Source: Alphaproteobacteria bacterium | GTDB taxonomy: Bacteria; Pseudomonadota; Alphaproteobacteria; Bin95 | DNA length: 64,000 bases | Direction of reading: 5' to 3' | Assembly: GCA_965205265.1 (NCBI GenBank) | Contig: CBDBGH010000003.1 | Coordinates: 3,456,001 to 3,520,000 of the forward strand | Shown: positions 27,039 through 64,000 of the stretch, piece after piece | How the letters are laid out: every line of letters starts with the position of its first letter | Position numbering within the stretch: position 1 is the stretch's first letter | The notes under the pieces: generated by a model | The model's input: the letters and a program-made list of their open reading frames with translations, nothing else | Database searches by the model: none | What the model was told of the DNA's origin: nothing | Made by a program: the position numbers and the translations under genes

Positions 27039-29386
<2,348 letters not shown>

Positions 29387-36246: not shown

Positions 36247-36353
36247 CCGCCCCCTTCCGGGACATCCTGCCGGCCCGACGCCAGCGGGGCGTCCGCCTTT
36301 CCCCTTGTTCCACGAACCGAGGAGGACGGCATGACCTGTGCCGACCCGGAAAT

Positions 36354-36385
36354 CCGCCGAAATTCCGAGCTCGGAATTTCGGCGG
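36354..36385. repeat. Perfect 32-bp palindrome at the left RIT junction
   Basis: CCGCCGAAATTCCGAG|CTCGGAATTTCGGCGG. Confidence 0.9.
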
Positions 36386-36527
36386 TTATCCCGAGTCGCT
36401 TCTAATGCCGAGTCGGGTGCGGAAGTCACCTTGTCCATTGAGTTTCTCCATAGGTTTACTCGGCATTAAATTCGGGTGTCATCGCGCCTATGAGTCGTCC
36501 CCCCTTTCGATGAAATGGAGGACGACA

Positions 36528-39034: not shown

Positions 39035-40023
39035 CCGATCTTGCCCCCCACCTTACCACCTTCCTTCAGGAGCATTTGCCCAAAGAGCGGCGCTTTAGCC
39101 GGCACACCGTGCAAGGCTACACCGATTGCTTCCGGCTGCTGGTCCTCTACGCGGCCGAAAACATCGGAATCCGTCCCTGTGCCTTGAAGATCGAGCACTT
39201 CACGGTGGCGTTTCTGCTGTCCTTCCTCGAGTTCCTGGAGAACGACCGGGAAAACAGCGTCGGCACCCGCAATATCCGCCTCGCCGCCATCAAGTCCTTC
39301 TTCCGGTATGTGGAATACCGTGTCCCGGGCTGTCTTGACCTCGCATTGCAGGTGCGCGCTGTCCCGCACAAGCGTGCCAACAGGCCACTGATCGACTGGC
39401 TCGACCGGGACGAGATGCAAGCGATCCTGGACGCGCCGGACACCGCGACGGTCGCAGGTCTACGTGATCGGGCGATGCTGCACCTGTGTTATGCCGCCGG
39501 GCTCCGGGTGTCGGAGTTGATCGGGCTGACGCTCGATAGACTGTCGGGTCCACAGATGGAAACCATCCGCATCCTGGGCAAGGGGCGGCGTGACCGCGAA
39601 CTGCCGTTGTGGAAGGAAACCAGGAGCGTTCTCAACGAGTGGCTGGACGTCCGGCCGCCGGTCAATAACCGCTACCTGTTCCTCAACGCACGAGGACGGG
39701 CGATGAGCGCGGATGGCTTCGCGTACATCCTCAAGAAGCATGTCGCCACGGCTACACCGAAGGCTCCGTCGCTCCGGAGCAAGCGGGTGACCCCGCATGT
39801 GCTGCGTCATGCCACCGCCATGACGATCCTGCACGCCACCGGAGACGTCCGGAAAGTCTCTCTCTGGCTCGGCCACGCGGACATCAAAACCACCGAAGCG
39901 TATCTCCGTGCAAGCCCAGTGGAGAAACTGGAAATCCTTCAGAACAACCCACCGCCGTCCATCAGACCGGGGACGTTCCGCGGTGTGCAGGACGACCTGA
40001 TGAGTGTTCTCAGCGCGCGATGA
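39031..40023 (+). CDS. Tyrosine recombinase RitC-like
   Basis: TRNIRLAAIKSFFRY, GLRVSEL, GKGRR, PHVLRH, LWLGHA, TTEAY. Confidence 0.92.
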   Translation: MTDLAPHLTTFLQEHLPKERRFSRHTVQGYTDCFRLLVLYAAENIGIRPCALKIEHFTVAFLLSFLEFLENDRENSVGTRNIRLAAIKSFFRYVEYRVPGCLDLALQVRAVPHKRANRPLIDWLDRDEMQAILDAPDTATVAGLRDRAMLHLCYAAGLRVSELIGLTLDRLSGPQMETIRILGKGRRDRELPLWKETRSVLNEWLDVRPPVNNRYLFLNARGRAMSADGFAYILKKHVATATPKAPSLRSKRVTPHVLRHATAMTILHATGDVRKVSLWLGHADIKTTEAYLRASPVEKLEILQNNPPPSIRPGTFRGVQDDLMSVLSAR

Positions 40024-41515
40024 CACCCGAATTTAATGCCGAGTAAACCTATGGAGAAACTCAATGGACAAGGTGACTTCCGCACCCGACTCGGCATTAG
40101 AAGCGACTCGGGATAACCGCCGGGCGCGCGACCGCGCGCGCATCGCCAGACGCACCGCCGAACGGACCGAGGCCGGCCTGTGCACGAGATGCGGCAGCAC
40201 CGGGCCTGTCCCGGAGCGCCGCCTGTGCGCGCCCTGCAACGAGAAACAGAACCGCGCGAGCCGGGCGCGGGACGCCCGCCTGCGGGCCGGCAGGAAACCC
40301 CGGCGCGACCCCGAACGGGCAAGGCGTCATGGACGTGAGCGCGACCGCAAGCTCTATGCCGAGCGCGCGGCCGCCGGCATCTGCACCAGGTGCGGCCGGG
40401 CCCCGGCGCGCCCGGACCGCACGACCTGCGGGCCTTGCGCGGAGAAGCATCGTGCGCGTGACCGCGAGCGTGACGCCCGGGCCAGGGCCCAGGGCATGCC
40501 GTATGGCGGGCGCGACCCGGAGGCCCGGCGCAAGGCCGGCCGGGAGCGCAGCCGCCGGCGCAGCGAGGCCCGCCAGGCCGCCGGCCTCTGCACCCGCTGC
40601 GGCAACACCCCGCCCGAAGAGGGCCGGACCATGTGCGGGCCGTGCCGCGCGGACAGGCGGCAGGCGAAACGCGCCCGCCATCACGGTCGCCGCGCCGCCG
40701 GATTGTGCGTCCGGTGCGCGGCGCCCGCGCCGGACGGCAGGGCGTATTGCCCGCCTTGCGCCGGGACCCGGAGCCGGCGGCGGGACCGGAAGGCGAAGCG
40801 GGAGGCCGACCGCCGGCGTTATGCCGAACGCAAGGCCCGGGGCGATTGCACCAGTTGCGGCAAGCCGGCCAACGGGGCGGCCGAGTGCCAGGACTGTCGC
40901 GACGCCGCCCGCGACCGCTACGACGCCCGCAGAACCGCCGGGGTCTGCGTCAAGTGTCAGGCACCCACCTTCGATGGCGCCGCTTACTGCGCGCCCTGCG
41001 CCGTCGTCAGGGCCGAGCGCCGCGACCGCGAGGCCGAACACGCCGCCCGCCGCGACCGCTATGCCGGTCGGAGGGCCCGGGGCCGCTGTGTCGCCTGCAA
41101 CGCGCCCTCGCCGGGCGTGGCGCGTTGCGAGCCCTGTTCGCGCAGGCACCGCGAGAGTTCGGGCGCGTTCCGCGGCATCCCGTTCTGGGACCCGCAGTAT
41201 ACGGTGATCGAGATCGCCACCGGGCGCGAGCACGGGCCGTTCGACAGCGAGGCCGATGTCGCGCTCTGCCTCGTCTTCGAGAAGCTCTCGCGCGACGAGG
41301 TCGAGGTGCTGTGCGATGCCAGCCCCATGGCTTTGCTGACGGCGCCACCCTGGTGAGCCGGCGCGGCCCCGGATCGGCGTTCGCCTGCCCGTCCTGCTTC
41401 CGCCGGGCTGTCGTCCCGGAGTTGGAGAAGGGCTTTGGCGGGGGCGAGCGCCCGGCGGGGTGGAAGGGAGCGGCCCTTCCGCTGGATGTCCGGGCGCCGT
41501 CCAGGGGAGATGCCC

Positions 41516-41653
41516 ATGTCCGAGTTCTTCCACGACGCCGATGCGGCAACCGGCACCGAACACGACGCGCCGGCCTGCGACGAACTGCTGGCCGAGGCCG
41601 GTCTCGACAGCCGGGCCATCCGCGAGGTCCTCGCCGGCCGCGACGCAGAGTGA
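41516..41653 (+). CDS. Small hypothetical protein upstream of ssb copy 2
   Basis: GGAG RBS; resembles 23315-23524. Confidence 0.5.
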   Translation: MSEFFHDADAATGTEHDAPACDELLAEAGLDSRAIREVLAGRDAE

Positions 41654-41760
41654 AGGAAAGCGGGAAGAAGGTGAGCGGCAGGGGGCCGGGGAGAGGGATC
41701 GACCCGGCTTCCCCCGTTCGCAACCCATCGTCAGCAACCAGCCATTCAAGGAGATTCTCC

Positions 41761-45894: not shown

Positions 45895-46159
45895 CACACC
45901 CGACGCACCGATGGTGCAGGGAGAACCGTGCCGCCCATGTCCACATATGCCGCCCATGCCACGGTCACTGGAACGGGTGTCCGCCCCTGTCCGCTCCTGT
46001 CATGCCGGAAACAGTTGCCACCGATCGGTGGCGGAATGCACCGCTCGCGATCCGAAAAATAATGCTGTTTATCAACATGTTGTCGATACGCGCACCGATT
46101 GCGACCGCCGCGTGTGACGGCCGTGTTTATGGCATTCCCTGCGCACCACCGATCGGTGG
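45895..46159 (-). other. Apparently intact MOBF-type oriT (site B)
   Basis: Minus strand GCACC-ATC-GGTGC-GTCGGGTGT^G; IHF consensus TATCAACATGTTG at 46070-46082; palindromes at 46017-46032 and 46146-46159. Confidence 0.7.
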
Positions 46160-47980: not shown

Positions 47981-48321
47981 CAGTTCAAGCTTTGCTGACA
48001 GATCCTCATAGGTTTTTCCACTGACCGATCAGGACATCGAAGCCGGCATTGGCGACGACGACATGCAGGTGGGGATGCCAGTCGAGTCTCTGGTTCCATG
48101 TATGCAGGACGGCGGTGCCACCGATCCTGGCACCGAAACTGCGGCGCGACAATCAGCTTGAGACGCTGGCGACAATCAGGATGAGACGGGGGAAGGCGGC
48201 GGCCCGGAACGGAGGGAGGGCGTAGCCCGACCGGAGTTCCGGGCCGCCGCCTCAAAAAATTTTTCCTGGACCTTCTGGCGGGGTCGGTCGGCTGGGCGAA
48301 CGGTGACGTTTTTCCGAGTAG

Positions 48322-50669
<2,348 letters not shown>

Positions 50670-50930
50670 ACCGCTGCCGCCAGATCGGCCCAGCGGCCAC
50701 AACACTCACGGCCCGCGGGAATCGCCTCCGCGGGCCGTCTCTTCTCCGACCCGACGGCCCCCCCGCGACAATCAAAACGCTCTCCGAAAACCTTGTTTGT
50801 CGCGCCGCGACAATCAAAATCCGAAACCGCTTGCAATCCGCGCCCCGCGCGACAATCATCAACTCGCCGATGCCGCCGGGGAATCTCATCCTGATTGACG
50901 CGCGGCTCTCACCCAGATTGTCGCGCTATA

Positions 50931-51223: not shown

Positions 51224-51663
51224 TCCGCAACACCCTCGCGGGCCGCACCGTCGCTCCGGCGGCCGTGCGGCCCGTTCCCGCGTGCGCACACCGGTCACCG
51301 CAACGCCTTCCTCGCGCGCGCTCCGCGCCGCGCTCGGGCTCCGGCTCGCTGCGCTCGCCGACCGCGCCTGCGTTCCGCGTCACCCGCCGCTGCACCATGC
51401 CGCGCATGAGTGCACCGGCCACTGCGCCGAACCCGGCGCACTGCCGCCCGCATCGCGCGCTGCACCCGTGCAGGCGCCGCTGCGCGCGCTGCCGCCCGCG
51501 CGCCCTCGCATCATGCTGCGCATGAATGCCTCGGACGCCGCGCCCGACGCCGCCGCTCACACGCCGCGGCGGCTTCCCTCCGCCGCTCTCGCCGGCGTCG
51601 ATTCCCCCATCGTCAATGCCGCAGACTCAGCCGTCCCGACCGCCCGGGGCGGCCTCGGTTCGT

Positions 51664-51686
51664 CACACCCGACGCATCTGTGATGC
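51664..51686 (-). other. MOBF-type nic core (site A')
   Basis: Identical to site A. Confidence 0.7.
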
Positions 51687-51890
51687 CTTTTCGCCTTCCG
51701 GTTGGCGTTGCGGGAGGTTGCCGGGGAACCCTTGTTTTGCAACGGTTTCCGGTCTTCCCGCCTGCCGCTTCCTTGTCCTCCTGCCCGCGAGCCCGGGGCC
51801 CTGTCCAGGACACGTTGTGGCATGTCCTGCGGGTCGGGTCCACCCGTCCCGGACGCTCGGCCCCTTCCGGCGCGCCGCGGCCGGGTTCGT

Positions 51891-53165
51891 TCAGAACTGG
51901 CGCACGAAGCTGAGTTCGGCGCGGTTGCGCCGGTAGTCGAGGGCCTGGGCGTTGGTCTTGCGCTGCTCGCGGATGAGGGAGAGGCGGGGGCTGAAGCCGA
52001 GCACGGTCACGGCGCGGTTGTGGACCGAGACCGAGAGGGTCCGCGTGTCGTCCCGGCGCGGCTTGCGGTCGATGGTGCGGTGGGCGGCGCCGCCGCCCTC
52101 ATAGTCGGTGCGCTGCAGGGCGGCGCGCAGGCCGAGCGTGAAGCCGGCCGGCAGCGCCAGCGTGGCGCCGAGGCTCGCCCGCGGGCCGCTGTTGCGCCAG
52201 TGTTCGGCCCTGGCGCGGGCCCAGCTCCAGCCGGCATTGCCGCCGAGGCGCAGGATGGTCAGCGCGGCCCAGTTGGCGCCGAGCGAGACGTCGCCCACCG
52301 GGCCGTCGAGCCAGTCGCAGCCGCGGCAGTTGCGCCGGGCGGCGCCGGCGCGGGCGAAGAGCGCGAGGCGCGGCGTCAGCAGATGCTCGCCTTCGAGGCG
52401 CAGGCCGACGCTGTCGGTCTCGGGCCGGCCGGCGGTCCATTGCCGGTCCGCGGTCGCCAGCAGGCTCGCTTCGGTGCGGGCGTCGATCAGCCAGCGCGGG
52501 CCGACATGGGCGGCAAGGAAATGCCGGTCGAACTCCCCGCCCCTGTATTCCCGGACGCTGGCGTCCGCCCCGGCGCGCAGGCGCAGGCGGTCGTTCAGCG
52601 GATGCTGGTATTCGCCGCCGCCCCAGAAGGAGACGCCGAGGCCGGATTCGGGCTTCGCGGGATCGTCCAGGGTGAAAGGCAGCCGGCCGAACGGGGTGTC
52701 GAGGAAGACCGTGCGCTCGCCCGAGGCGGCGTTGAGGTTGCTGTCCGGGACGATGGCCGCCCCGAACCACGCCTCCCAGCGCCGCCGCGCGCGGATGATG
52801 TCGAGGAAGCGCCGGATGTTGGCGGCGACCGCCGGGGGCACGTCGCCCGCCAGCACCTGCTCGAAATGCCGCCGCGCCAGCGTGTCCTCCTCCTTCAGGA
52901 AGAAGGCGCGGGCGAGTTCGAGACGCACCCGCACCAGCTCCGGGCGGTCCACCAGGATGGCCCGGAAGGCGGCGACCGCCTCGTCGAGCCTGCCCTCGCG
53001 GGCTTCCCGGTCCGGTGCGGCATCGGCGGCGGCAAGCGCCTCCATCCCGGCCCGGAAGCGCATGTCGGTCGCATCCTGGCCCAGGGCGGGGCGCGCGACG
53101 GGCGCCGCAACAAGCAGGACCGACAGCCCCGCCAGCACGGGAACAAGGAACCGGAAAGGTCTCAT
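51891..53165 (-). CDS. Slam / DUF560 translocator, copy 2
   Basis: Identical to copy 1. Confidence 0.85.
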   Translation of the reverse strand: MRPFRFLVPVLAGLSVLLVAAPVARPALGQDATDMRFRAGMEALAAADAAPDREAREGRLDEAVAAFRAILVDRPELVRVRLELARAFFLKEEDTLARRHFEQVLAGDVPPAVAANIRRFLDIIRARRRWEAWFGAAIVPDSNLNAASGERTVFLDTPFGRLPFTLDDPAKPESGLGVSFWGGGEYQHPLNDRLRLRAGADASVREYRGGEFDRHFLAAHVGPRWLIDARTEASLLATADRQWTAGRPETDSVGLRLEGEHLLTPRLALFARAGAARRNCRGCDWLDGPVGDVSLGANWAALTILRLGGNAGWSWARARAEHWRNSGPRASLGATLALPAGFTLGLRAALQRTDYEGGGAAHRTIDRKPRRDDTRTLSVSVHNRAVTVLGFSPRLSLIREQRKTNAQALDYRRNRAELSFVRQF

Positions 53166-53296
53166 CGCGTCTGTCGCATCGCTTGCCGTCCGGGCTCCCG
53201 ATCGAAAAAGAAGGGCGGCGCAGGAAACGCGCCACCCTTGTCACGACCGGGAACCGGGCCGGCCTCCCGCATGAACGGGAGCCCGGCCCCGTGCGG

Positions 53297-55945
53297 CTAC
53301 TCCGTCGTCGGCGTCTGAAGCTCCGTGCCGAAGGCGCCGACCATCCGGTGGGTGCCGCCGTGTTCGGCCTGGAACTTGCCCATGATCGCGGTCGGATGGT
53401 TGCTGCCGTCGCCGCCATTCTCAACCGTGCCGGGCTTGTCGTCATACAGGTTGGCCACCCAGCTCCCGGCCGGCGCCGCCTTGTTGCCGTTGATCGACCA
53501 CACCGTCTTTTCCGTGTTGACGATGTGGCCCTTCTGGGCATCGGTGGCCAAGCTGGGGTCGGTGGTCCAGGCCGCCTTGTTCAACGTCACGCTCCAGTCG
53601 TTCTTCATCCCGTTTTTCAGCCTGAAGTCGTGGATCGTGCCGGTCAGGCCCGTGTCGGCGTTCAGGTTGGCGGTCCCGAACTGGGCCTTCAGCGTGGCCG
53701 TCGCCGTGAACTCGCCACCGCCGCCCTTCTCGTTGAGCGGGTCGTTGATGGCGTACCAGCCGATCGCGGGGCCCTCATAGGTCGCCGCCCTGCCTCGGTT
53801 GACGTTCAGGCTCTTGCCGTCCGTGGCGAGATCGACGCCCCCGCCGACGGACTGGTAGAAGGCGCTGACCGCCGCCGGCATGCCGTCGGCGTCGTTCCGC
53901 ACCCACCAGCCGAAGTACATGTAGCTGAGGTCCCTTTCCAGCACCTTCGCGCCCGCGTCGTGGACGAAGTACCAGTCGGCGGACATGAAGTAGCCGCCGA
54001 ACCCGCCTCCTCCGACCCCGGTCTCGACCGTGCAGGTGCCGCTTGCGGGGCAGAAGTAGTTGCCCGGCGCGCCGTAGTAGGTGCCGGGGACCTTGATCTC
54101 CGCGCCCCCGTCGGCCGGCTTCGGAGCGGTCACGGACCCTATCCCGACGGTCCACTTGTCGAACGTGGCGGATGCGATCGCCCGGTCGACCCCGGTGCCC
54201 AGGGTCAGTCTGCGCGCGTGTTTTGGGCCGCTGTTGCCGGATACGAACGGCTCGTAGGTCCCCTTGTTGATCCAGTCGGTGTCGTCCTTGAAGAACTTCG
54301 CGGCATCCATCGGGACGACACCCCATCTCTCCAGCGGGCCGCCCTGCCGGTCGTTGTACACCCGGACCTTGTCGGTGACCTTCATGCTGCCGGAGCCGGT
54401 GGTCCTTTCGTAGTGCGTGACGTTCCACCGGCCCACCTTGTCCATGGTCGTGTCGTGCCCGGGGCGCCCCTCCGCGCCGTGCCTGAAGTACACGGCGGTG
54501 TGGGTGTTCGCAGTCGCGATGCTCCCCGCGCCGGCCGCGGGGTCGATGCGGAAGTCCCCCCGCTCGCCCCTCTGACCGGTCGCCTCCGCCGGGGCGTCGT
54601 GCTGGCTATCGGTGATACTGGTGATGTAGTACGGGACGGTCGCGAGGTTGTTCAGCGCGTTCACCGGGGCCGTTGTGTCATCGGACGGACCCATCGCCGC
54701 GTACAGCGCCCGGCCCATCCTGTGCCCGTCCATGCGCGCCGTCTTGGCGTCGCCGAAGGCGTCCTCCTGCAGGGCGAGCCTCGTGCGCAGCAACTCCTTG
54801 TTGGCCTCGGGGATGTTCGCGTCCGCGATCGCCGTCTTGGCCGCCGCGATGGCGGCTTCGACGTCGGTCACGGTGCTTTCCTCGGACAGGGACGTGATCC
54901 TGGCGATCGCGTCCATGACCGCCTTAATCTCGCCGTCCGTGATCGTCGTGACGACGCCGGCGATGCGGGTCTCCTCGGCCTTGGCCGCCATGCGGGAGTC
55001 CTTGGCCCGGTCGAGCGCGCCCTGATGCATGGCAATCTTCGAGCGAAGCTTCGCCTTTTCAGACTCGGGGATGTTTGCGCCCTCGATCTCCGCCTTGGCC
55101 GCGTCGATGGCGGCCTGGGCGTCCGTCACGGTGTCGTCGCCGGACGTGTTCGTGACCATCTTGACCGCCTCCATGGCCGCCGCGACCTGGGTGCCCTCGA
55201 TGTTCTTGACAACATGATCGTGGTAATGGCCCTGCGCCGTCTTGATCTGCCCGTCGTCAGCGTCCGCACGGTCCGCCTGAGCCTGATACCGGTCCTTTTC
55301 GTCGTCGGTCAGATCCTCGGCGCCCGCGATCGCCGCTTTCAGCTCTCTGAGAGCGGCCATGGCGGCGTCGAGCTGCGCCTTCGTGGGCGTCACGCCCGCA
55401 AACGCCGCAAGAGCCATGTCGAGCTTTCCGGAAGCCCCCGAAAGCGCGTTCATCTGCTCTTTCCGGTCCACGGCTGTCTGGGCACTGGCCAGTTGCGTCC
55501 GATACGTCGCCTTGTTGGCATCGCTCACGTCGCCCGCATCGTCCAGCGCCTCCTTGAGAGCCGCGATGGCCGCCTTGGCCGCGGCGAGCTTGTCCGCGTC
55601 CGACAGGTCGGACGTGTCGACCTCGGCGAGCGCGTCCATCAGCGCCTTCTTCTGATCCATCTCGCGAGCCATCGTCGCCAGCACCGTCTTGCGCGCCGCA
55701 GCCGCCGCCTGAAGCTTCGCGAGCTCCTCGCCGGAAACGCCGGCCGTTGCATCGGCAACGGCCTTGTCGACCGCAGCGTCCGTCGTGGCCGCCTTGATGG
55801 CCGCGTCCGCCTTCTGGTAGGGCGTCTGCGTCTGCGCCGGCATCTGCGTCGTCGTCGACGGCGAGCTTCCGCCCCCGCCGCAGCCGGCAAGCCCCAGAGC
55901 CGTGGCGGCCATGACCGCGATCGCCCAATGCTTCACAATTCTCAT
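53297..55945 (-). CDS. TbpB-barrel lipoprotein, copy 2
   Basis: Identical to copy 1. Confidence 0.8.
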   Translation of the reverse strand: MRIVKHWAIAVMAATALGLAGCGGGGSSPSTTTQMPAQTQTPYQKADAAIKAATTDAAVDKAVADATAGVSGEELAKLQAAAAARKTVLATMAREMDQKKALMDALAEVDTSDLSDADKLAAAKAAIAALKEALDDAGDVSDANKATYRTQLASAQTAVDRKEQMNALSGASGKLDMALAAFAGVTPTKAQLDAAMAALRELKAAIAGAEDLTDDEKDRYQAQADRADADDGQIKTAQGHYHDHVVKNIEGTQVAAAMEAVKMVTNTSGDDTVTDAQAAIDAAKAEIEGANIPESEKAKLRSKIAMHQGALDRAKDSRMAAKAEETRIAGVVTTITDGEIKAVMDAIARITSLSEESTVTDVEAAIAAAKTAIADANIPEANKELLRTRLALQEDAFGDAKTARMDGHRMGRALYAAMGPSDDTTAPVNALNNLATVPYYITSITDSQHDAPAEATGQRGERGDFRIDPAAGAGSIATANTHTAVYFRHGAEGRPGHDTTMDKVGRWNVTHYERTTGSGSMKVTDKVRVYNDRQGGPLERWGVVPMDAAKFFKDDTDWINKGTYEPFVSGNSGPKHARRLTLGTGVDRAIASATFDKWTVGIGSVTAPKPADGGAEIKVPGTYYGAPGNYFCPASGTCTVETGVGGGGFGGYFMSADWYFVHDAGAKVLERDLSYMYFGWWVRNDADGMPAAVSAFYQSVGGGVDLATDGKSLNVNRGRAATYEGPAIGWYAINDPLNEKGGGGEFTATATLKAQFGTANLNADTGLTGTIHDFRLKNGMKNDWSVTLNKAAWTTDPSLATDAQKGHIVNTEKTVWSINGNKAAPAGSWVANLYDDKPGTVENGGDGSNHPTAIMGKFQAEHGGTHRMVGAFGTELQTPTTE

Positions 55946-56109
55946 GAACCCTTCTCCTTTCAGCAGGAACGCCTCGCCGGTCCCCGATGCAAACTCCGGG
56001 CAAAGTGTAGGTGGAACGCAGGGCGTGTCAACAAACTAAAACACTTCATGCGCCGTTCCCTCATGCGAGCCCCAGCGCAGGCGGAGCATAGGCGGACAGG
56101 ACGGGAGAA

Positions 56110-57267
56110 TCAACAACTCCGGAGCTTCCGCTCGACCGCCACCGCCACCCGCTCGGCGGCTTGGCCGAGGGTCGCGTCGTCGAGATGGACATAGCGGTTC
56201 GTCGTGCTGGCCCGGCGGTGTCCGAGCAGGCGTCCTGCGACATGCAGGCTTTCGCCATTCATGACGGCGTGCGAGGCATGCGCATGTCGCAGGTCATGAA
56301 GCCGCGCATCCGCCACGATCCCGGCCGCATCGCGCGTCGTGGTCCAGAAATAGTGGAGTTCGTTGCTGCCCAACGGCCCGTCTCCGCTCCTGCCCGGAAA
56401 CACACATTCCCCGGACGCCGATTCGGCGAGGCCGGCCAGCAACGCCCGCGCCGCTTCGCCCAGCAGAACGTGCCTCGGGCCCGTCTTGGTGTCGGGCAGC
56501 GCGAGCCGGTCCGGCTTGACCTCGCACCAGCGCAGGCGGCGAATCTCCCCCGGCCGGCACCCGGTCAGCAGGAGCAGGCGCACCGCCGCGGCGCAGACCG
56601 GGTGTTCGGCCTCGCGCTCGCGCAGCACCGCGCCCAGCTTCGCCAGATCGTCCGCACCCAGCAGCCGCCCGCGCGGCGGACGCCGGTAGCGGACGATGCC
56701 CGTGCACGGGTTCCCGGCGGCCTCGGGCCGATGACCCCACGCGACGGCGCAGTCGAACATGTTGCGAAGGATGTCATGGGCGCGGTTCGCCCCGCCCGGC
56801 CTCCGCCGCCCGTAGTCGTGGAAGAAGCGGGCAATGTCGGCCCGCACGACCGCGCCGACGCGCAGATGGCCGAGCGCGGGCAGGATGGCGCTGTCGAGGT
56901 AGCTCAGGGTCGCCTGCACCGTGGACGGCTTCCAGGACGGGGCGCGCCGCTCGACATATTCCACGGCGAACTTCGCCAGCGTCGGGCCGGAAGCGGGAAG
57001 GGGCAGAGAATCGCCGACGCCCTTCTCGCGGGCGAGGAAGGCGAGCGCCGCAGCGCGCGCCCGGTCGGCCTTTACCGCCTCCGGCCTGCCGAGCGTGACC
57101 CGGCACGGCTTGCCGTCGCGCCGGAAGCGGAACACCCAGGATCGCGCGCCGTTGGGCTGGACGCGCAGCATGAAGCCCTGAAGGGCGGTATCGTGGACGG
57201 CGTATTCGCGTTCGCGCGGACGGGCCGCGAGCGCGAGCGCATCGGTCAGCCGGGCGCGTTCGGTCAT
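56110..57267 (-). CDS. Tyrosine integrase with arm-binding (DUF4102-like) N-terminus (int2)
   Basis: D..LQGFMLRVQPNGARSW, TGCRPGE, DTKTG, HDLRH, LLGH, TTNRYVH; ATGA-coupled to int1. Confidence 0.92.
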   Translation of the reverse strand: MTERARLTDALALAARPREREYAVHDTALQGFMLRVQPNGARSWVFRFRRDGKPCRVTLGRPEAVKADRARAAALAFLAREKGVGDSLPLPASGPTLAKFAVEYVERRAPSWKPSTVQATLSYLDSAILPALGHLRVGAVVRADIARFFHDYGRRRPGGANRAHDILRNMFDCAVAWGHRPEAAGNPCTGIVRYRRPPRGRLLGADDLAKLGAVLREREAEHPVCAAAVRLLLLTGCRPGEIRRLRWCEVKPDRLALPDTKTGPRHVLLGEAARALLAGLAESASGECVFPGRSGDGPLGSNELHYFWTTTRDAAGIVADARLHDLRHAHASHAVMNGESLHVAGRLLGHRRASTTNRYVHLDDATLGQAAERVAVAVERKLRSC

Positions 57268-58415
57268 CGGTCCGCCTCCCCGCCGTCGAGCATGGCGGCA
57301 AGGCCGCGCGAGACCCGGTTCGCGGCCTCGAACACGGAGCCCTCGGCAAGGTGCGCATAGCCGAAGGTGGTCTGGATGTCGGCATGGCCGAGCAGCCCGG
57401 CGACGATGCGCAGGCCCTCGCCGCCGCCGACCGCGACCGCCGCATAGCTGTGGCGGAGATCGTGAATGCGCAGCGTCGGCAGACCCGCCGCCGCGCGGAC
57501 CGCGTTCCATGCCCTGTCCACCGTCGCAGGGCCGCCGCAGGGAGACGCGAACACCCACGGGCAGTCGTCGCGCCGGGGTTGCGCCGCGAGCACGGCGCGG
57601 GCGGGCGATGCGAGCCGGATCGTGCGCGGACCGGTCTTGCTGTCGGGCAACACAACACGGTCGCCGTGGACATGCTCCCACCTGAGCCGCAGAGCCTCGG
57701 ACTTGCGCGCGCCGGTATGGAGCAGGAAGCGCAGCGCGGCGACGGCGACCGGCCATTCCGCTTCCGCGCCGTCGAGCGCCCGCCCAAGCGCGGCGAACTC
57801 GTCGTCCGTCAGGTAGTGCGCCTCGAAGCCGGTCCTGCGCCGCCGCAGCCCCTTGCACGGGTTGGAGTCCTCGCGCCGCAGGCCGAGCGCCTCCGCGTGC
57901 TTCATCATCGACGACAGCACCGCCAGCGCCCGGTTCGCCGATCCCGCCCGCCTGGCCGACAGATCGTCGAACCAGTTGTGCACATCTTTCGCGCCGATCG
58001 AATCGACGCGCCGACCGCCAAACACGGGCAGGATGAAGCGGTTCATGCCGTCCGCGTGCGCGCGCCGCGTCGCCGGCTTCCAGCGTTCGGCGCAGTCGGC
58101 GAGGAACGCCGGCGCGAACGTCCGCACCGTCGGCACCGTCGCCGGTGCGCCGCCCGTCTCCGCATCGGCGAGCAGCGCTCGCGCCGCGTGCCGCGCATCC
58201 TCGACCGTCAGTTCGTCGAGCGCGCCGAGCGTCCGCCTGACGACGGAGCCGCCCGCGCGCCGGTGCACGATCCATGTCTTGCGCCCTTTCGCCCGCACCC
58301 GCAGGCCGAGGCCCGGCGCGGCGCTGTCCCACAGCACGGCCTCGCGCCCGTCCGCAGCAGCGAAGGCGCGCGCCCGCGCCTCGGTGATCTTCGTCCTCTT
58401 CGTTCCGTTCGGCAT
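57264..58415 (-). CDS. Tyrosine integrase with arm-binding N-terminus (int1)
   Basis: LWD...PGLGLRV...GRKTW, TGARKSE, DSKTG, HDLRHS, LLGH, TTFGYAH. Confidence 0.92.
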   Translation of the reverse strand: MPNGTKRTKITEARARAFAAADGREAVLWDSAAPGLGLRVRAKGRKTWIVHRRAGGSVVRRTLGALDELTVEDARHAARALLADAETGGAPATVPTVRTFAPAFLADCAERWKPATRRAHADGMNRFILPVFGGRRVDSIGAKDVHNWFDDLSARRAGSANRALAVLSSMMKHAEALGLRREDSNPCKGLRRRRTGFEAHYLTDDEFAALGRALDGAEAEWPVAVAALRFLLHTGARKSEALRLRWEHVHGDRVVLPDSKTGPRTIRLASPARAVLAAQPRRDDCPWVFASPCGGPATVDRAWNAVRAAAGLPTLRIHDLRHSYAAVAVGGGEGLRIVAGLLGHADIQTTFGYAHLAEGSVFEAANRVSRGLAAMLDGGEADR

Positions 58416-58632
58416 CTTCCGACCCCTTCCCTTGTCTGCCGGTCGCAGGAGCCCCCGTTGGGGAACACCCAGGACACGCCGGGGAACGGCGTCGGGTTCG
58501 AAGATCGGAAGGGCCGGAAGTGCCGCACTCAAACGCCGCGCGGGCTGCAAGCCATTGTCAGAACTGGCCTTGCGGCGCTTCGCGGATGCGGGGGCGGAGT
58601 GATGATTTCTACGCCCTTCGGCGCGTGGTTCT

Positions 58633-58803
58633 CACACCCGACGCACCGCTGGCGCCCTCAGATCCAGGCGCGCGCCTGGCATGTCTTGCCTGCGTTTTCA
58701 GCGCCCTGAAACGACACGGTGTTGATGGGCGGAGTTGCCCCCGATCGGGGGTCCGGCGCAGTCAGACTGACTGCACGGAATCATCCGCCGAATCAAGGTC
58801 TTG
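58633..58803 (-). other. MOBF-type nic core plus oriT accessory region (site C)
   Basis: Minus strand GCGCC-AGC-GGTGC-GTCGGGTGT^G (one G.T pair); IHF consensus AATCAAGGTCTTG at 58791-58803. Confidence 0.68.
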
Positions 58804-59069
58804 CACACCCCGTCCATCGGCCGTGTGACGGCGTGTTGCGCGATCATGCGCATCAGCCCGGGAAATCCCCTATGGAGCAGTCAATCCGACTGCGCGCCCG
58901 GCTGCGCCCACTGTTGACAGCAGTCACTCCGACGGTACGGCCGGAACCGCTGTCGGGCCGGCTCCGCCGCATCAGGGGACGCCCGGCGGTGTTTCGTTGG
59001 CTACCGGTTTCGGTCTGGCCGTCGTACCATGCGGAGATGGAATCCGCACGGGAGGAGGCCCGGAGATCA

Positions 59070-59408
59070 ATGGCCGAGACGTTCACGAGGACCATCCGGG
59101 TCACGCCGGAGCAATGGGAGCGGATCGAAGAGGCCGCCAGGGAACGCGAGGTTTCCGCCAACCGGCTCGTCGTCGACCTCGCCATGGCGGCCCTCGACCG
59201 GCGCCCATGGCCGCGCACCGAACTCGACATCCAGGTCGCCAAGGCCGCCCTGTTCGCCGCCCAGGTCCTGCGGCGCGGTCTCATTGCCGACGGACGCGAG
59301 GCCGAGGTCGAGGACATCATGCGGTTCGTTTCGACATTGACGCCCGAAGGCGCCGCCAGCCCGGTGCCGTTATTCGACCCGCCGCCTCGGCCATCCGACC
59401 TTCGATGA
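59070..59408 (+). CDS. RHH-like protein, candidate relaxosome accessory factor; 3' end overlaps an IS256 remnant
   Basis: TRTIRVTPEQWERIEEAAREREVSANRLVV (beta-helix-helix pattern); GGAG RBS; next to oriT site C. Confidence 0.65.
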   Translation: MAETFTRTIRVTPEQWERIEEAAREREVSANRLVVDLAMAALDRRPWPRTELDIQVAKAALFAAQVLRRGLIADGREAEVEDIMRFVSTLTPEGAASPVPLFDPPPRPSDLR

Positions 59409-59512
59409 TCTCGGCCAGCGCCTGGCGCCCGAGCGGGCGATAACCCTCGCCCCACTCCAGTCCGTCTGCCTGCATCTCCTTCACCACCTCAAACGCCTGC
59501 GGTAGGCTCATG

Positions 59513-59602
59513 ATCGTCGCAGCTTGCTGGGACATGCGGGGTGCTCCTGCTTGTGATTGTCATCACCACAGGGAGGCCCCCTTTCTGCCTGACACATAAA
59601 TT
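59513..59602 (+). repeat. 90-bp direct repeat (left target duplication of IS1634)
   Basis: Identical to 61519-61608 and abuts the IR. Confidence 0.92.
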
Positions 59603-61518
59603 CCTGACTTCGACGGTTGGGCTGACTTCTGACCGATCTCGCGTCTGGAGTTTTCAGTAAAGCCAATGAGTTGGCAGTTGCGGTGCGGTCAAGCTGCGTT
59701 GTAGTGCCTAGTAAATCTTTGAGACTGTCAATGCCTCCGCCACGCGCTACACTCCCCCCATGTTCGTGCGCATCAAGACCTCCCCCAACAGCCCGCGACG
59801 CTCGGTCCAGATCGTCGAGGCCGTGCGCGACGGCGGCAAGGTCCGACAGCGCATCGTCCGCCATGTCGGCGTGGCCATGGACGAGGACGAGCTCGAGCGC
59901 CTGAGGCAGCTCGGCGAGTACGTCAAGGCGAAGCTGGAGGACGAGCGTCAGCCGGCATTGTTTGCGCCCGAGAAGATCGCTGAGCAGGCGATCCGTGTCG
60001 GCCGCCGGGGGGACGGCAAGGAGGAACTCCCGGTCGACCTCAAGCAGCTTGAAGAGGAGCAGCGCCTGATCACAGGCATCCACGAGGTCTATGGCGAGAT
60101 CTACCGGCTGCTGGGCCTCGACGCGCTGCTGCCGCGCTCGCGCTACCGGGCCTCCCATGACGCGCTGTTCCATGTGGTGATGGCGCGGGTAGCCAACCCC
60201 GACAGCAAGCGGGGCAGCGTGCGCCGGCTCGAGGAGGACTTCGGCGTGAGTCTTCCGCTCGAGAAGGTCTACCGGATGATGGATCAGCTCGACGCGACGG
60301 TGATCGAGCGACTGCGCACGCGCGTCGGCGAGGCGAGCCGGTCGCTGCTGCCGGAGCCGGTCGCGATCCTCTTCTTCGATTGCACCACGCTCTACTTCGA
60401 GACGGCCGCCGAGGACGAGCTTCGCCAGCACGGCTTCAGCAAGGACGGCAAACACAAGGACTCGCAGGTTCTGCTGGCGCTGATGGTGACGCGCGAAGGG
60501 CTGCCGATCAGCTACGAGGTCTTCCCCGGCGCCACCTACGAGGGACACAGCATGGTCCCGGTCCTGCAGGACATGCAGCGCCGCCACCAGGTGGAGCGCA
60601 CGGTATGCGTGGCCGACCGGGGCATGCTGAGCGCCGACAACCTCGACGCCATGGACGCCATCGGCGGCGAGTATGTCGTCGGCGCGCGGCTGCGCAAGCT
60701 GCCGCTCGCGCTGCTGGGGCAGGTTCTCGACCCCGGGACCTATGCCCCGCTGGAGGGCTCACAGGACCGCCGGGTCGGCGAGTGGGAGTACAAGGGCCGT
60801 CGCCTGATCGTCGTCTTCTGCCCCCAGCGCGCACGCAAGGACGCGCACGAGCGCCGCCATCAGGTGGAACGCCTGCTCGACAGGCTGGCCCGCAGCGACA
60901 ATCCCAGGGAACTGCTCTCCAATCACGGGGCGAAGCGCTTCATCGCCGTCGAGGGCGACGCACGGCTCACGGTGAACCCGGAGAAGATCGCCGAGGCCGC
61001 ACGATGGGACGGGCTCACCGGCGTCATCACCAATCTGCGCGACGCGCGCGTCACCGAAGTGATGGCTCACTACCAGGGGCTCTGGCAGGTCGAGGAGAGC
61101 TTCCGGATCACCAAACACGACCTGAAGATACGTCCCATCTGGCACTGGAACCCGGACCGGATCCGCGCTCACATCGCCATCGCCTTCCTGGCCTTCGCCT
61201 GCGTTCGACACCTTGCGTACCGCGTCGCCATCCAGAAGCGGCGGATGTCCCCGGAGGTCATCCGCTCCGCCCTCGTCCACCGCCAGTGCTCCCTGCTGCG
61301 CTGTCGGCAATCGGGCAACCGCTACGTCATCCCCTCGAAGCCGACACCGGCGGCGGAGCAGATTTACGCAACCATGGGGCTGCCCCTGACGATCACCCCG
61401 TATCAACTCGCCTGACCGTCGACGAAGCACGGCTCGAAGAAATGCCGGATGTAGTGCCTAGCCGAAATGAGAACCAGGCAATATCAACTACTTATGCGAA
61501 TCAACCGTCGAAGTCAGG
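59603..61518 (+). mobile_element. IS1634-family insertion sequence
   Basis: Perfect 17-bp IR CCTGACTTCGACGGTTG / CAACCGTCGAAGTCAGG. Confidence 0.92.
59760..61415 (+). CDS. IS1634-family transposase
   Basis: FFDCTTLYFE, GFSKDGK, VADRGM, WDG, Y..LWQVEESFR.TK.DL.IRPI.H, RIRAHI.I.FLA. Confidence 0.92.
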   Translation: MFVRIKTSPNSPRRSVQIVEAVRDGGKVRQRIVRHVGVAMDEDELERLRQLGEYVKAKLEDERQPALFAPEKIAEQAIRVGRRGDGKEELPVDLKQLEEEQRLITGIHEVYGEIYRLLGLDALLPRSRYRASHDALFHVVMARVANPDSKRGSVRRLEEDFGVSLPLEKVYRMMDQLDATVIERLRTRVGEASRSLLPEPVAILFFDCTTLYFETAAEDELRQHGFSKDGKHKDSQVLLALMVTREGLPISYEVFPGATYEGHSMVPVLQDMQRRHQVERTVCVADRGMLSADNLDAMDAIGGEYVVGARLRKLPLALLGQVLDPGTYAPLEGSQDRRVGEWEYKGRRLIVVFCPQRARKDAHERRHQVERLLDRLARSDNPRELLSNHGAKRFIAVEGDARLTVNPEKIAEAARWDGLTGVITNLRDARVTEVMAHYQGLWQVEESFRITKHDLKIRPIWHWNPDRIRAHIAIAFLAFACVRHLAYRVAIQKRRMSPEVIRSALVHRQCSLLRCRQSGNRYVIPSKPTPAAEQIYATMGLPLTITPYQLA

Positions 61519-61608
61519 ATCGTCGCAGCTTGCTGGGACATGCGGGGTGCTCCTGCTTGTGATTGTCATCACCACAGGGAGGCCCCCTTTCTGCCTGACA
61601 CATAAATT
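61519..61608 (+). repeat. 90-bp direct repeat (right target duplication)
   Basis: Identical to 59513-59602. Confidence 0.92.
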
Positions 61609-62039
61609 CTTACGTCACCCGTCGTAGGCCGGCATTTGCCTTCGGCCTTCGTGTATTCTATACAGGGAGTCGGCATGGTTTGCTGCCGCCTTGCGACCGC
61701 AATCAGTCCGTTACAGGGGTAAAGTCATGACGAACACTGCAAGCGGTAGGGGTCAGGACATGACCGCCCTCACGTGCGCGCGACCTTCGTGCCCCCCCCC
61801 CGGCAGGTAATCGGGCGGCTTTCGTGCGTCCGCACCTTGGCTCTTGAGCGGCGTTCTGGCGGGGTCCGCCTGACGCAAGCTCTCCCGACGACACCCCGCT
61901 TGTTTGAACATGACATCGGAACTGCTGCGGGTTTCCGGGACGGAACCGGCTTCGAGCCTCGCCCGTGGCGCAATCGAATCCGGCACCGCTTCACAGCGCC
62001 AACGGCGGGGTGGCGGCCTCACCAAACGGAGAATGGATC

Positions 62040-64000
62040 ATGACAGTCGAAGGCATCACGCTACGCGGCGGTGAGGCGGCCGATACCCTGACGGGCGGCG
62101 ACGGCAATGACCAACTCCATGGCGGCGCCGGCGGCGACACCCTCGACGGCTGGTCCGGCAATGACACCGTGCATGGCGATGCGGGCAACGACACCCTCTA
62201 CGGCGGCGACGGCAACGACACGCTTGACGGCGGCGAGGGCGTCGACACGCTGTGGGGCGGACGGGGCAACGATACCCTGAAGGGTGGCAGGGGCGATGAC
62301 TGGATGTCGGGCGGCCTCGGCGCCGACACCTTCGCGTTCGCGGTCGGGGACGGACACGACAAGATCTCCGACTTCGAGGACGGCGACACCATCAGGGTCA
62401 CCGGCGTATCCGGGGGCTTCGAGGCGCTGGTCATCGAGCAGGACGGCGCCGATACCGTCATCCGTTACGGCGACGGCGACAGCATCCGATTGTCGAACGT
62501 GTCGGCGGCGTCGCTGACAAAGGACCGCTTCGAGTTTCCTGCCGCCGAGGGTAACCCGCAGGGCGGTGAAGACGACGACGACACCCCGAACGGCGGCGAG
62601 GGCGACAGCGACGGGGGAGGCGAAGGCCCCGCCCAGGAGCAGGTAACCCGGACGGAAAGCGACGGGGACGGCGTCGCCCCGCAGAAGGCCGCCGGAGTGA
62701 CGCGGAAGGGCGGCAATGGCGCCGATACCCTCGACGGCGGCGACGGCGACGACACCCTGAAGGGCCGCGGGGGCGCCGACACGCTGAACGGCGGCAAGGG
62801 CAACGACCTCCTGAAGGGCGGCAATGGCGCCGACACCCTGAACGGCGGTCTCGGCGACGACACGCTCAGGGGCGGCCGGGGCGACGACACCTTCGTGTTC
62901 AAGGCTGGAGACGGCCACGACACCATTGCCGATTTCGTAGACGGCGACACGATCCGCCTTGATGGCGTGACTGGCGGGTTCGCGGCACTGGTCATTGAGC
63001 AGGACGGGGACGATGCCGTCGTCCGCTACGGCGACAGGGTCGACACCATTCGGCTCAAGGGCGTCTCGGCGGACTCCCTGGATGAAGACGACTTCTCGCT
63101 GCCGGACAGCTCTGGCGGCGGCGACAAGGTCGCATACGGCGCCGGCCAGCGGGACAAGGCTGCGACCGCGTCGACCGGCGAGGAGACACAGAAATCTGGC
63201 ACCGGCGCTACCGGGAACACCGGGAACGTGCCGGAACCCAAAGGCGTCACCGTGACCGGCGGCGACGGCGACGACCATCTCTGCGGCGGTCTGGGCGACG
63301 ACCACATCACCGGTGGCGGCGGAGACGACATCCTGGAAGGCAAAGCAGGCAACGACACTGTTCACGGCAACGATGGCGACGACCGCGTCTACGGCGGCGG
63401 CTGGGCTGGCTTCAACGACGACGGCGACGACACACTCTACGGCGGCGCCGGTGCAGACATCGTCGTCGGCGGCAACTGGGGCATTCACGTCCTTCTCCGC
63501 GACGGCGACGACGGCGACGACACGCTCTACGGCGGCGATGGCGACGACACCCTCGTCGGTGGCCACTGGGGCCATGGCACCACCACCAAGGGCGCCGGCG
63601 ACGACGGCAACGACACCCTCTACGGCGGCACCGGCAACGACTTCCTCATCGGTGGCAACTTCGACAGCAAGAGCAACCGCACCAACGACGGCGAGGACGG
63701 CAACGACACACTCTACGGCGGCGATGGCGACGATACCCTCGTTGGCGGCAACTGGGGCAACGAGGTTCACTGGGAGCTGTCGCGGATGGACGGTGATGAG
63801 AAGGTCGTAGAACAATCCGGAGTTTGGCCATGGAGTGGCGATGTCGGCAACGGCGCTGACACCCTCGTCGGCGGCAAGGGCAATGACGTGCTGTGGGGCG
63901 GTGGCGGCGCCGACAGGTTCGTGTTCGATCGGGAATCCAACACCGACACTATCTGCGACTTCGAAGACGGAGTGGATACCCTCGTCATCCAGGGCGGCAT
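62040..64000 (+). CDS. RTX (hemolysin-type calcium-binding repeat) protein, partial, runs off the window end
   Basis: GGAGA RBS, ATG 62040; many GGxGxDxL nonapeptides and GHDxIxDF motifs; frame stays open to 64000; absent from the ORF track. Confidence 0.9.
   Translation, partial: MTVEGITLRGGEAADTLTGGDGNDQLHGGAGGDTLDGWSGNDTVHGDAGNDTLYGGDGNDTLDGGEGVDTLWGGRGNDTLKGGRGDDWMSGGLGADTFAFAVGDGHDKISDFEDGDTIRVTGVSGGFEALVIEQDGADTVIRYGDGDSIRLSNVSAASLTKDRFEFPAAEGNPQGGEDDDDTPNGGEGDSDGGGEGPAQEQVTRTESDGDGVAPQKAAGVTRKGGNGADTLDGGDGDDTLKGRGGADTLNGGKGNDLLKGGNGADTLNGGLGDDTLRGGRGDDTFVFKAGDGHDTIADFVDGDTIRLDGVTGGFAALVIEQDGDDAVVRYGDRVDTIRLKGVSADSLDEDDFSLPDSSGGGDKVAYGAGQRDKAATASTGEETQKSGTGATGNTGNVPEPKGVTVTGGDGDDHLCGGLGDDHITGGGGDDILEGKAGNDTVHGNDGDDRVYGGGWAGFNDDGDDTLYGGAGADIVVGGNWGIHVLLRDGDDGDDTLYGGDGDDTLVGGHWGHGTTTKGAGDDGNDTLYGGTGNDFLIGGNFDSKSNRTNDGEDGNDTLYGGDGDDTLVGGNWGNEVHWELSRMDGDEKVVEQSGVWPWSGDVGNGADTLVGGKGNDVLWGGGGADRFVFDRESNTDTICDFEDGVDTLVIQGG

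Follow-up and report, generated by a model that had tools for sequence, protein, structure and literature searches.

A candidate relaxase-less cassette with paired integrases at the predicted nick of a MOBF-type origin of transfer

The DNA examined here is a stretch of 64,000 nucleotides from an alphaproteobacterial genome (GCA_965205265.1, contig CBDBGH010000003.1, positions 3,456,001 to 3,520,000), hereafter called the window. Our subject is a four-gene block in it, at 51677-58645, which we take to be, with reasonable though far from full confidence, a discrete integrative element without a relaxase, inserted at the predicted nick of a TrwC (MOBF)-type origin of transfer (oriT) of a chromosomal integrative and conjugative element (ICE). 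Positions are those of the whole window, and coordinates prefixed C3 are those of the 5.7-Mb source genome (G000). The original prediction described a block of about 7 kb between direct copies of a 13-mer, and exact copies of this 13-mer, CACACCCGACGCA, are indeed present at 51664 and 58633. The block and its borders comprise the following features, in which a slash marks the predicted nick.

51664-51676, minus strand: left core copy, exact match, reading TGCGTCGGGTGT/G with the predicted nick between T and G
51674-51686, minus strand: cassette hairpin GCATC-ACA-GATGC, whose 3' arm continues into the core in the register of R388 IR2
51687-51890, minus strand: non-coding 3' end of the cassette, containing the block CGTGTCCTGRAC
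51891-53165, minus strand: Slam gene, 424 aa, PF04575 match (1.7e-18, 67.6 bits, cutoff 22, profile positions 1-288 of 288)
53297-55945, minus strand: gene of an 882-aa lipoprotein with a lipobox (..LGLAGC; LAGC) near its start
56110-57267, minus strand: int2, P4-like tyrosine integrase of 385 aa, with the same three Pfam domains as int1
57264-58550, minus strand: int1, P4-like tyrosine integrase, with Phage_integrase (4.9e-15), Arm-DNA-bind_3 and Phage_int_M
58611-58632, minus strand: int1-side end of the cassette, with the inverted repeat ACGCGCC-GAAG-GGCGT and then GGTTCT on the plus strand
58633-58645, minus strand: right core copy, exact match, at which homology to the empty site of a sister species resumes
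58643-58655, minus strand: host hairpin GCGCC-AGC-GGTGC, with one G-T mismatch

The four genes are in the order int1, int2, lipoprotein and Slam, all on the minus strand, according to their pattern of G+C content at third codon positions (GC3) and to Pfam. The gene order originally proposed is therefore retained, but on the opposite strand: the four long plus-strand open reading frames (ORFs) covering the cassette have no Pfam match and the wrong GC3 pattern, and were rejected as genes. The int1 ORF encodes 428 aa from a TTG start, with an ATG at residue 46, and its stop codon overlaps the start codon of int2 (ATGA). PF00589, PF13356 and PF22022 match both integrases. The catalytic motifs read from the sequences are TGARKSE, SKTG, HDLRH and GH..GYAH in int1, and TGCRPGE, TKTG, HDLRH and GH..RYVH in int2. 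In each protein the R, K, HxxR, H and Y set expected of a tyrosine recombinase is complete, in agreement with the proposal of two translationally coupled, catalytically intact integrases.

The Slam protein, in which the DUF560/SlipAM barrel profile is matched and the TPR_Slam profile stays under its cutoff, is, as judged from its sequence, a surface lipoprotein assembly modulator, the outer-membrane component of type 11 secretion, and the 882-aa lipoprotein is its probable cargo. This lipoprotein gave no match in Pfam, NCBIfam or PDB sequence searches. In a language-model search (Atlas), its C-terminal part scored 0.92-0.94 to clusters partly carrying PF01298, a resemblance to TbpB-type barrel proteins that is a lead only. 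The block has room for four genes only, and no relaxase domain was detected in any of them with Pfam or NCBIfam.

Both ends of the cassette have counterparts in related elements described below. The GCATC/GATGC stem is also found at the cargo end of the relatives L019, L026 and L029, and the block CGTGTCCTGRAC, compared by eye, is shared with the same end of L019 and L029 despite their different cargo; it may be an arm-type site. The inverted repeat on the int1 side is the cassette's form of a second hairpin that lies 3' of the nick in every host oriT, and it is kept in relatives.

The core repeat occurs four times in the window, at 30454 (site A), 45895 (site B), 51664 (site C) and 58633 (site D), always on the plus strand, whereas 100 shuffles gave an expectation of 0.00. 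When two mismatches are allowed, the count is 5 against 3.84 expected, which is not significant, so only the exact copies carry weight. Eleven exact cores are present across the 5.7-Mb genome, every one at an ICE or cassette junction. A tRNA as insertion target was rejected, as no tRNA gene was found in the window. Both cores bounding the block are hybrid sites. The left one joins the leading-side flank of the host to the cassette's own hairpin, and homology to the empty site of the sister species ends there; the right one joins the int1-side flank of the cassette to the hairpin and trailing side of the host.

The proposal that the core is a MOBF nic site is supported by published sites. On the minus strand, the site consists of a 5-bp hairpin followed by GTCGGGTGT/G; its general form is a 5-bp hairpin, GT-NN(N)-GGTGT/G (GTCGGGTGTG), an (A/T)GAACC-like stretch and a second GC-rich hairpin. 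The F nic is given as TTTGCGTGGGGTGT^GGT in the relevant part of PMC2504302. The minus-strand core TGCGTCGGGTGTG has 12 of its 13 bases in common with F (TGCGTGGGGTGT^G), and the site at C3:2557606 has all 13. For R388, Table 1 of PMC4814116 lists the nic region as GCACC-GAAA-GGTGC-GTATTGTCT/A; the stem of site B (GCACC/GGTGC) is identical to this IR2 stem, and the stem-to-nick distance is 9 nt in both. The loose motif GCGT-N3-GTGT matches the genome 55 times, with a perfect 5-bp hairpin in register in 12 cases. All 12 lie at ICE or cassette sites, and a perfect stem is lacking from each of the remaining 43. Moreover, the stems co-vary at one position (T-A, C-G or G-C), giving GCATC/GATGC, GCACC/GGTGC and GCAGC/GCTGC.

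The gene neighbourhoods point in the same direction. The genome contains nine TrwC-family (PF08751) genes, three of them with a type IV coupling protein (T4CP) gene upstream. PF03135 detected no VirB4 in the genome, and the AAA_10 profile gave VirB4-like ATPase candidates in three elements. A nic-like site follows the DUF2493 stop codon by about 450 bp at seven of the eight loci examined, with core variants that include TGCGTTAGGTGTG, TGCGTGGGGTGTG and TGCGTTCCGGTGTG; at the eighth, C3:2356013, coding sequence follows and no nic-like site is present. At C3:3427 kb and C3:4734 kb, a TrwC gene ends about 0.8 kb from the hairpin, and at C3:4733515 the hairpin lying 0.8 kb from the TrwC stop belongs to a site where a cassette int1 begins. 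In the ICEs at C3:3427 kb and C3:3781 kb, homology runs on past both sides of the site, which must therefore be internal to the ICE backbone and not an ICE end. The leading-region genes for DUF2493, toprim and single-stranded DNA-binding protein (SSB) are on the 3' side, all oriented with the predicted transferred strand as template, and relaxosome genes (a ribbon-helix-helix (RHH)-like gene, or the 3' end of the T4CP-TrwC genes) are on the hairpin side. On the basis of this architecture, synteny and likeness to F and R388, we read the 13-mer with its hairpin as a MOBF-type oriT, with the nick predicted after GGGTGT.

The right flank of the block contributes two further features, which are needed for comparison with an unoccupied site.

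58791-58803, plus strand: match to the integration host factor (IHF) consensus, 146 bp from core D, aligned with the empty site of the sister species
59037-59408, plus strand: small oriT-adjacent gene (RHH-like), right of site D

The window contains 4 IHF-consensus matches, against 0.05 expected. The small gene matches no Pfam or NCBIfam family. It has homologues beside the empty sites C3:3189768 and C3:3552858 (46-48% aa identity) and in the sister species (82% aa), and it probably encodes a ribbon-helix-helix/MobC-like relaxosome accessory protein. The right flank originally described, an IHF box and an RHH gene, thus stands for the IHF match, while the RHH label rests on the reading of the sequence and on homologues beside oriT-like sites.

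In the sister species (G011), the uninterrupted arrangement is contiguous: the DUF2493 gene, an L1-like flank, the core CACACCCCACGCA, a GCAGC/GCTGC hairpin, the trailing flank and the orthologue of the RHH-like gene. Its trailing flank is 75% identical to window positions 58664-59348 over 685 bp. In a three-way alignment, the G011 sequence tracks the left junction until the core is reached and thereafter the right junction, and the cassette ends align with nothing. The G011 site and the two window junctions make up an attB/attL/attR triad. The unoccupied DUF2493-oriT-RHH-like arrangement is also found twice in the source genome, at C3:3189768 and C3:3552858. The original prediction would have been weakened had no genome shown DUF2493 joined directly to oriT and RHH; this junction is present in both genomes.

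Relatives of int1 were sought in a scan of one genome per species, which gave 16 loci at 75-97% aa identity in Alpha- and Gammaproteobacteria and in other metagenome-assembled genomes (MAGs). At all ten loci with an intact int1 5' end, a nic-like core lies 83-95 bp upstream of int1 and is followed by the conserved second hairpin; the remaining six are truncated and show no core. The far end, with its GCATC/GATGC hairpin and core, is present at three loci (L019, L026 and L029). Cargo differs between loci: an Mrr-like nuclease in L019, NOV_C/Mrr and a DNA methylase in L029, a methylase in L017, and a lipoprotein with Slam in L020, L026 and L027. The expectation that homologous integrase pairs would be flanked by the core and carry variable cargo is therefore supported. 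L020 is inserted in an oriT type whose empty form is at C3:3427 kb of the source genome, and DUF2493 follows in L026 and L027. Units may also be arranged in tandem, with three cores in direct order in L019 and arrays in L027 and at C3:5159 kb; the latter two include a second unit type, in which an integrase adjoins its hairpin. The upstream hairpin of L029 is of the cassette type and adjoins what we read as an antitoxin-like fragment, possibly the trace of a neighbouring unit that has decayed.

More distant overlapping integrase pairs (45-47% aa) are found in Paracoccus versutus pTAV1 and in a Leisingera plasmid, with a hairpin and ..GGTGTG or ..TGTGTG about 200 bp upstream. The pTAV1 locus (L053; NZ_CP035285.1, 8700-12000), on a plasmid of a cultured organism, has in order an SSB/nrdH leading-type region, a 7-bp hairpin with ATCAGGTGTG, the overlapping twin integrases and a BrnT/BrnA toxin-antitoxin pair. 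Its far end has been lost to an IS21 fragment, and it could serve as an experimental model. Among 16 other species of the same genus as the source organism, no close int1 orthologue was found, the best identity being 47%; a nic-like core lies beside the integrase, on the hairpin side, at five of the 11 loci fetched.

Within the source genome, nine further loci carry cassette segments at least 97% identical to the window copy. In five places the int1 end extends to the core, beyond which four kinds of flank are found: the RHH side in the window, the 3' side of TrwC at C3:4734329, another integrase unit at C3:5159379 and its duplicate C3:5351421, and ankyrin genes at C3:5320883. The Slam end meets the DUF2493 flank three times and at least one other flank. 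At C3:5315145-5320523 (L039), three ankyrin-repeat proteins adjoin the cassette remnant; proteins of this eukaryote-like kind are typically found in host-associated bacteria. The locus C3:4707889, which combines a flank like that of the integrase side with the core and the cassette hairpin, was considered as a circle junction and rejected: its flank comes from another unit type, homologous to L019 just past the core at 3328, and an IS21 element cuts the cassette there 18 bp past the hairpin.

The point of exchange can be delimited by comparing the two cores of single elements. These differ (GG and CG in L019, TCC and CG in L026), and the variable core middle always stays with its own hairpin. 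In the window, the junctions differ after GTGTG, being ACGAACC on the host side and AGAACC on the cassette side. Since the variable middle remains with the hairpin and the base past GTGTG differs, the exchange is confined to GGTGTG(A), an interval that contains the predicted nick. Identity past GTGTG is not needed, as L019 and L029 illustrate. The interval fits both the 6-7 bp overlap of a tyrosine recombinase and relaxase strand transfer at the nick.

Based on these observations, the coupled int1 and int2 would recombine the oriT look-alike of the element with the resident oriT, with crossover in GGTGTG(A). The insertion leaves two hybrid nic sites in direct orientation, and the element would then be carried as the first DNA transferred by the ICE. 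Alternatively, the cassette might be transferred alone, with the resident TrwC relaxase starting at one hybrid nic and stopping at the next. As the element carries both halves, the hairpin beside Slam and the second hairpin beside int1, circularisation would join them into a complete oriT look-alike. Either route would spread the cargo, namely Slam and a surface lipoprotein here and restriction or methylase genes in relatives. The identity of the enzyme that catalyses insertion, and the steps of excision and mobilisation, are deduced from these arrangements, and we lean towards the integrases for insertion. In the source genome, other twin pairs flank unrelated junction sequences without a nic-like motif, and these pairs therefore look like general integration modules. 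The position of a protein within its pair is also phylogenetically conserved, with 3 changes against a shuffle mean of 7.7, and none of 500 shuffles was as low. The original description, a relaxase-less element that integrates into the host oriT, therefore holds for a discrete, core-bounded unit without relaxase at an oriT, with the integrases as candidate catalysts of its insertion.

Several observations weigh against this account, and some of them favour a less likely but tenable alternative, insertion by the relaxase itself. In this view, a TrwC-type enzyme would use HUH strand transfer at the nick to place an oriT-bearing circle in the resident oriT, and release would follow when it starts at one nic and finishes at the next; the integrases might then serve double-strand integration elsewhere, dimer resolution or nothing. 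According to the sections of PMC3264647 on this reaction, TrwC of R388 can alone integrate incoming DNA into a copy of oriT, with a 17-bp core target (14 nt 5' and 3 nt 3' of nic), a process stimulated by TrwA and IHF. The sequence shared here by element and target, comprising the proximal hairpin arm and the core to about 1 nt past the predicted nick, has the size and position of that 14+3 core. The nick-containing exchange interval, the dispensable identity 3' of GTGTG and the nine resident TrwC genes also agree with a relaxase, as does the cassette hairpin, whose stem is that of the resident ICE oriT at C3:2557606. Furthermore, in one MAG, L020, L026 and L027 share an in-frame int1 deletion that removes the Arg, the Lys and the HxxR region, and yet these gutted copies differ in what lies upstream of them. 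Catalysis by int1 in cis was therefore dispensable for those arrangements; insertion of other units beside a resident cassette could also explain them.

In contrast, a relaxase does not account for the retention of the integrase pair at one end of the element, pointing inward and at a fixed distance from the core at ten of ten loci, which is the usual layout of integrase-driven islands. Nor does it account for the conservation of about 200 bp of non-coding DNA past the hairpin between cassettes with different cargo, and related twin pairs of the same genome flank junctions lacking any nic-like motif. In addition, F TraI, whose nic most resembles the core, is stated in the relevant part of PMC3264647 not to catalyse oriT-specific recombination.

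The other unfavourable observations concern the site and the element as such. The folding energies of the hairpins, taken alone, are not significant (z of -1.3 to -1.9), and no excisionase gene was found in the block, where no further ORF fits. L029 and L017 are surrounded by island remnants or ordinary chromosomal genes, and no ICE gene was recognised within 10 kb of them. The other nine cassette-segment loci of the genome are truncated, interrupted or hybrid, only the window copy being fully intact, and the right junction at C3:5320883 has no hairpin where it adjoins the ankyrin-repeat genes. The circle junction and the empty allele of this exact site, both of which the original prediction had expected to be detectable, were absent from the assembly. 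They were also absent from Logan contigs of four runs, in which none of the 15 joints listed (of 24) skips 51677-58645 or links 58632 to 51677; these data are contigs from which rare forms are dropped, and this absence says nothing either way. Logan contigs start or end at 51657, 56483-56512 and 58618-58640, which fits the repeat borders. In the metagenome contigs of JGI, the circle-junction probe had 0 matches, and a probe for the int1-side end likewise had 0.

A more speculative view, which we regard as rather improbable, amounts to a general scheme. The oriTs of MOBF-type ICEs and plasmids in Alpha- and Gammaproteobacteria would be integron-like platforms, where cargo units ending in a hairpin and a nic core stack at the nick, leave one by one as single-stranded circles as the relaxase starts at one nic and stops at the next, and are re-inserted by paired integrases acting on a folded single strand. 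The integrases would then act on the folded oriT look-alike as IntI does on attC or XerCD on CTX-phi, and an HUH relaxase and tyrosine recombinases would share one site. In integron cassettes and CTX-phi, tyrosine recombinases act on hairpin DNA, and integration proceeds through a folded single strand. Such systems are also mentioned in the introduction to PMC9345347. Like integron cassettes, the units described here are tandem, promoter-poor cargo units, each ending in a hairpin-forming recombination site; unlike them, each unit has its own integrases.

It is very unlikely that the core is the attachment site of large ICEs instead of an oriT, and the window a series of islands stacked in tandem at one such site. 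The many other tandem integrase pairs of the genome (about 13), the core-bounded tandem arrays of L019, L027 and C3:5159 kb and the dispensability of a tRNA would suit this explanation. However, a conserved backbone crosses the site (T4CP, TrwC, 0.8 kb, hairpin, core, 0.45 kb, DUF2493), homology extends on both sides in different ICE copies and in G011, the leading-region genes all have the predicted transferred strand as template, and the sequence and register of the site agree with those of MOBF nic sites in the literature. Finally, misassembly of a repeat-rich region or chance 13-mers can practically be dismissed, despite an estimated contamination or duplication of 7.28% and a regional mosaic of IS21, IS256-like and other insertions, because the expected number of exact 13-mer matches is 0, the same junction architecture recurs in independent assemblies of other organisms, the sister species has an empty site, and public-run contigs from three studies span the block and stop at the same repeat borders.

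Comparison of the window with itself revealed three copies of a conjugative leading region, and the following features belong to this mosaic.

Ending at 30466: leading-region copy A, with SSB, DUF7146-toprim and DUF2493/YAcAr
30454-35286, minus strand: second cassette copy, with core, hairpin, Slam, lipoprotein and the 3' part of int2
Ending at 45907: leading-region copy B, intact
45895-45917, minus strand: unoccupied oriT-like site B, with core and hairpin GCACC-ATC-GGTGC
46070-46082: match to the IHF consensus, 163 bp from core B
Ending at 51676: leading-region copy C, reduced to the last ~118 DUF2493 codons, the rest being cut by IS21 at 48140-50930

The left flank of the block had been described as ending in DUF2493. 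This gene is present, but only as its last ~118 codons, IS21 having taken the rest. The IS21-family element is 2791 bp long, encodes ORFs of 499 aa and 279 aa and is present as two inverted copies, at 26778-29568 and 48140-50930, which are 99.96-100% identical; one splits the DUF2493 gene of copy A and the other truncates that of copy C. Further IS21 copies adjoin cassette remnants elsewhere in the genome, for example at C3:4708183. The second cassette copy is 99.92% identical to 51484-56496 over 5013 bp. This identity begins 180 bp to the left of the core, and copies A and C therefore share a flank lineage. The second copy is cut at a motif in int2 and is followed by foreign DNA of lower GC content. 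At 35287-41680, this foreign segment has a GC content of about 62-63%, compared with about 70%, and it carries three ORFs as well as perfect inverted repeats of 108 bp (36380-36487 and 40015-40122).

Site B had been put forward as the empty target of the cassette. This could not be sustained: it is an unoccupied oriT of a paralogous ICE copy and not the empty allele of this site. The resemblance between the right flanks of sites B and D extends beyond about 10 bp, with a shared palindrome (CCACCGATCGGTGG and CCCCCGATCGGGGG) about 110 bp out. To the right of site B lies an IS256-family transposase, and to the right of site D the RHH-like ORF and then another insertion sequence. The left flanks of site B and C3:3189768 are nearly identical (DUF2493 100%), with the same hairpin; as the two sites differ in the core middle (CGA and TAA) and beyond the hairpin, site B may be a recombinant oriT or the footprint of an earlier exchange at the nick. 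Further right, a 96-bp direct repeat (59508-59603 and 61514-61609, 99% identical) flanks a DDE_Tnp_1 gene at 59760-61415, and 61965-64000 is occupied by a large open-ended ORF with many 27-nt repeats (GGxGxD-like nonapeptides), which looks like an RTX-type calcium-binding protein.

The int2 motif at which the second copy is cut, GTCTTGGTGTCGG, is located at 56484-56496 in the intact cassette and encodes the conserved PDTKTG strand. It is a recurrent breakpoint in other copies, being found as such at 35274-35286 of the window and at C3:5323045, C3:4736520, C3:5161500 and C3:5353542. One of these junctions leads into AT-richer foreign DNA, and the complementary one is followed by another twin-integrase pair; three loci are hybrids of int2 and another integrase, joined at GTCTTGGTGTCGG. 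This breakpoint looks like the work of a second site-specific element that targets integrase genes, and its recurrence suggests large rearrangements between such sites. The other tandem P4-like integrase pairs of the genome are 35-45% identical to int1 and int2 (for example C3 2384275-2386545, 2545963-2548214, 2742006-2744279 and 3281506-3283936), and genomes of the same genus contain dozens of such P4-like integrases. Three pairs are preceded by GCACC-N3-4-GGTGC and then TAACTATCTGAAAT, which may be another hairpin-type attachment site.

Among known systems, the closest kind is the IME_oriT of Firmicutes. As presented in the relevant sections of Libante et al. 2020 (PMC7563843), these elements of streptococci and staphylococci bring a Rep_trans (MobT-like) relaxase of their own, together with one integrase and an excisionase, target MobT-type oriTs and use the ICE as host and helper. 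Like them, the cassette is small, bounded by direct repeats, inserted in the oriT of a host ICE and cargo-bearing. It differs from that description in having neither relaxase nor excisionase, in its two overlapping P4-like integrases, in its TrwC/MOBF oriT targets in Proteobacteria and in end sequences that copy the whole nic architecture. Relaxase-less integrative elements with an oriT only ('iOriTs') are the subject of a 2026 preprint by Ares-Arroyo et al. (doi 10.64898/2026.01.13.699239). The cassette resembles these in being integrative, in lacking relaxase and mating-pore genes and in having an oriT-like sequence as its sole link to a helper. By the abstract of that preprint, iOriTs are chromosomal islands with the oriT inside, whereas the look-alike of the cassette is its attachment site and the target is the oriT of the helper.

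The recombination between oriTs catalysed by TrwC (Agundez et al. 2012, PMC3264647) likewise yields, in the sections dealing with it, two direct hybrid oriTs with exchange at nic, its minimal 14+3 nt target being aided by IHF and an RHH protein. It is described there as a laboratory reaction of plasmid R388, whereas the cassette also keeps integrases. A literature search found no natural cassette family that uses TrwC-mediated integration. The strand-biased circularizing integrative elements SE-6945 and SE-6283 (SEs), in the part of PMC9345347 that describes them, have the order intA-CDS2-intB-CDS4, 19-bp terminal inverted repeats and 6-bp spacers, and no oriT found by the authors. The cassette shares with them a size of about 7 kb, two tyrosine recombinases, cargo and an association with conjugative elements, conjugative plasmids in the case of SEs. 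In contrast to that account, the integrases of the cassette are adjacent, overlapping and of the P4 type with arm-binding domains, and its ends are direct nic-like cores. In the literature within reach of our search, which excluded supplementary tables, we met with no element of Proteobacteria that integrates in a MOBF oriT, nor with any P4-like integrase pair whose attachment site resembles a nic.

If the proposed reading is correct, the conjugative elements of Proteobacteria would have dedicated small parasites or passengers that recognise and copy the nick site, the one sequence every conjugative element must keep, and that are moved by the relaxase of the host. The way in which restriction-modification genes, surface-lipoprotein export pairs and similar cargo come to lie at the very start of the transferred strand of ICEs would then be explained. 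The transfer efficiency of the ICE might also be affected, as transfer could terminate early at a second nic site. As a heteromeric site-specific tool, the integrase pair may deserve attention, and the family provides a setting in which to ask whether integration by a relaxase, so far known as a laboratory reaction, also takes place in nature. The oriT-targeting lifestyle would thus be extended from relaxase-bearing elements of Firmicutes to relaxase-less elements of Gram-negative bacteria.

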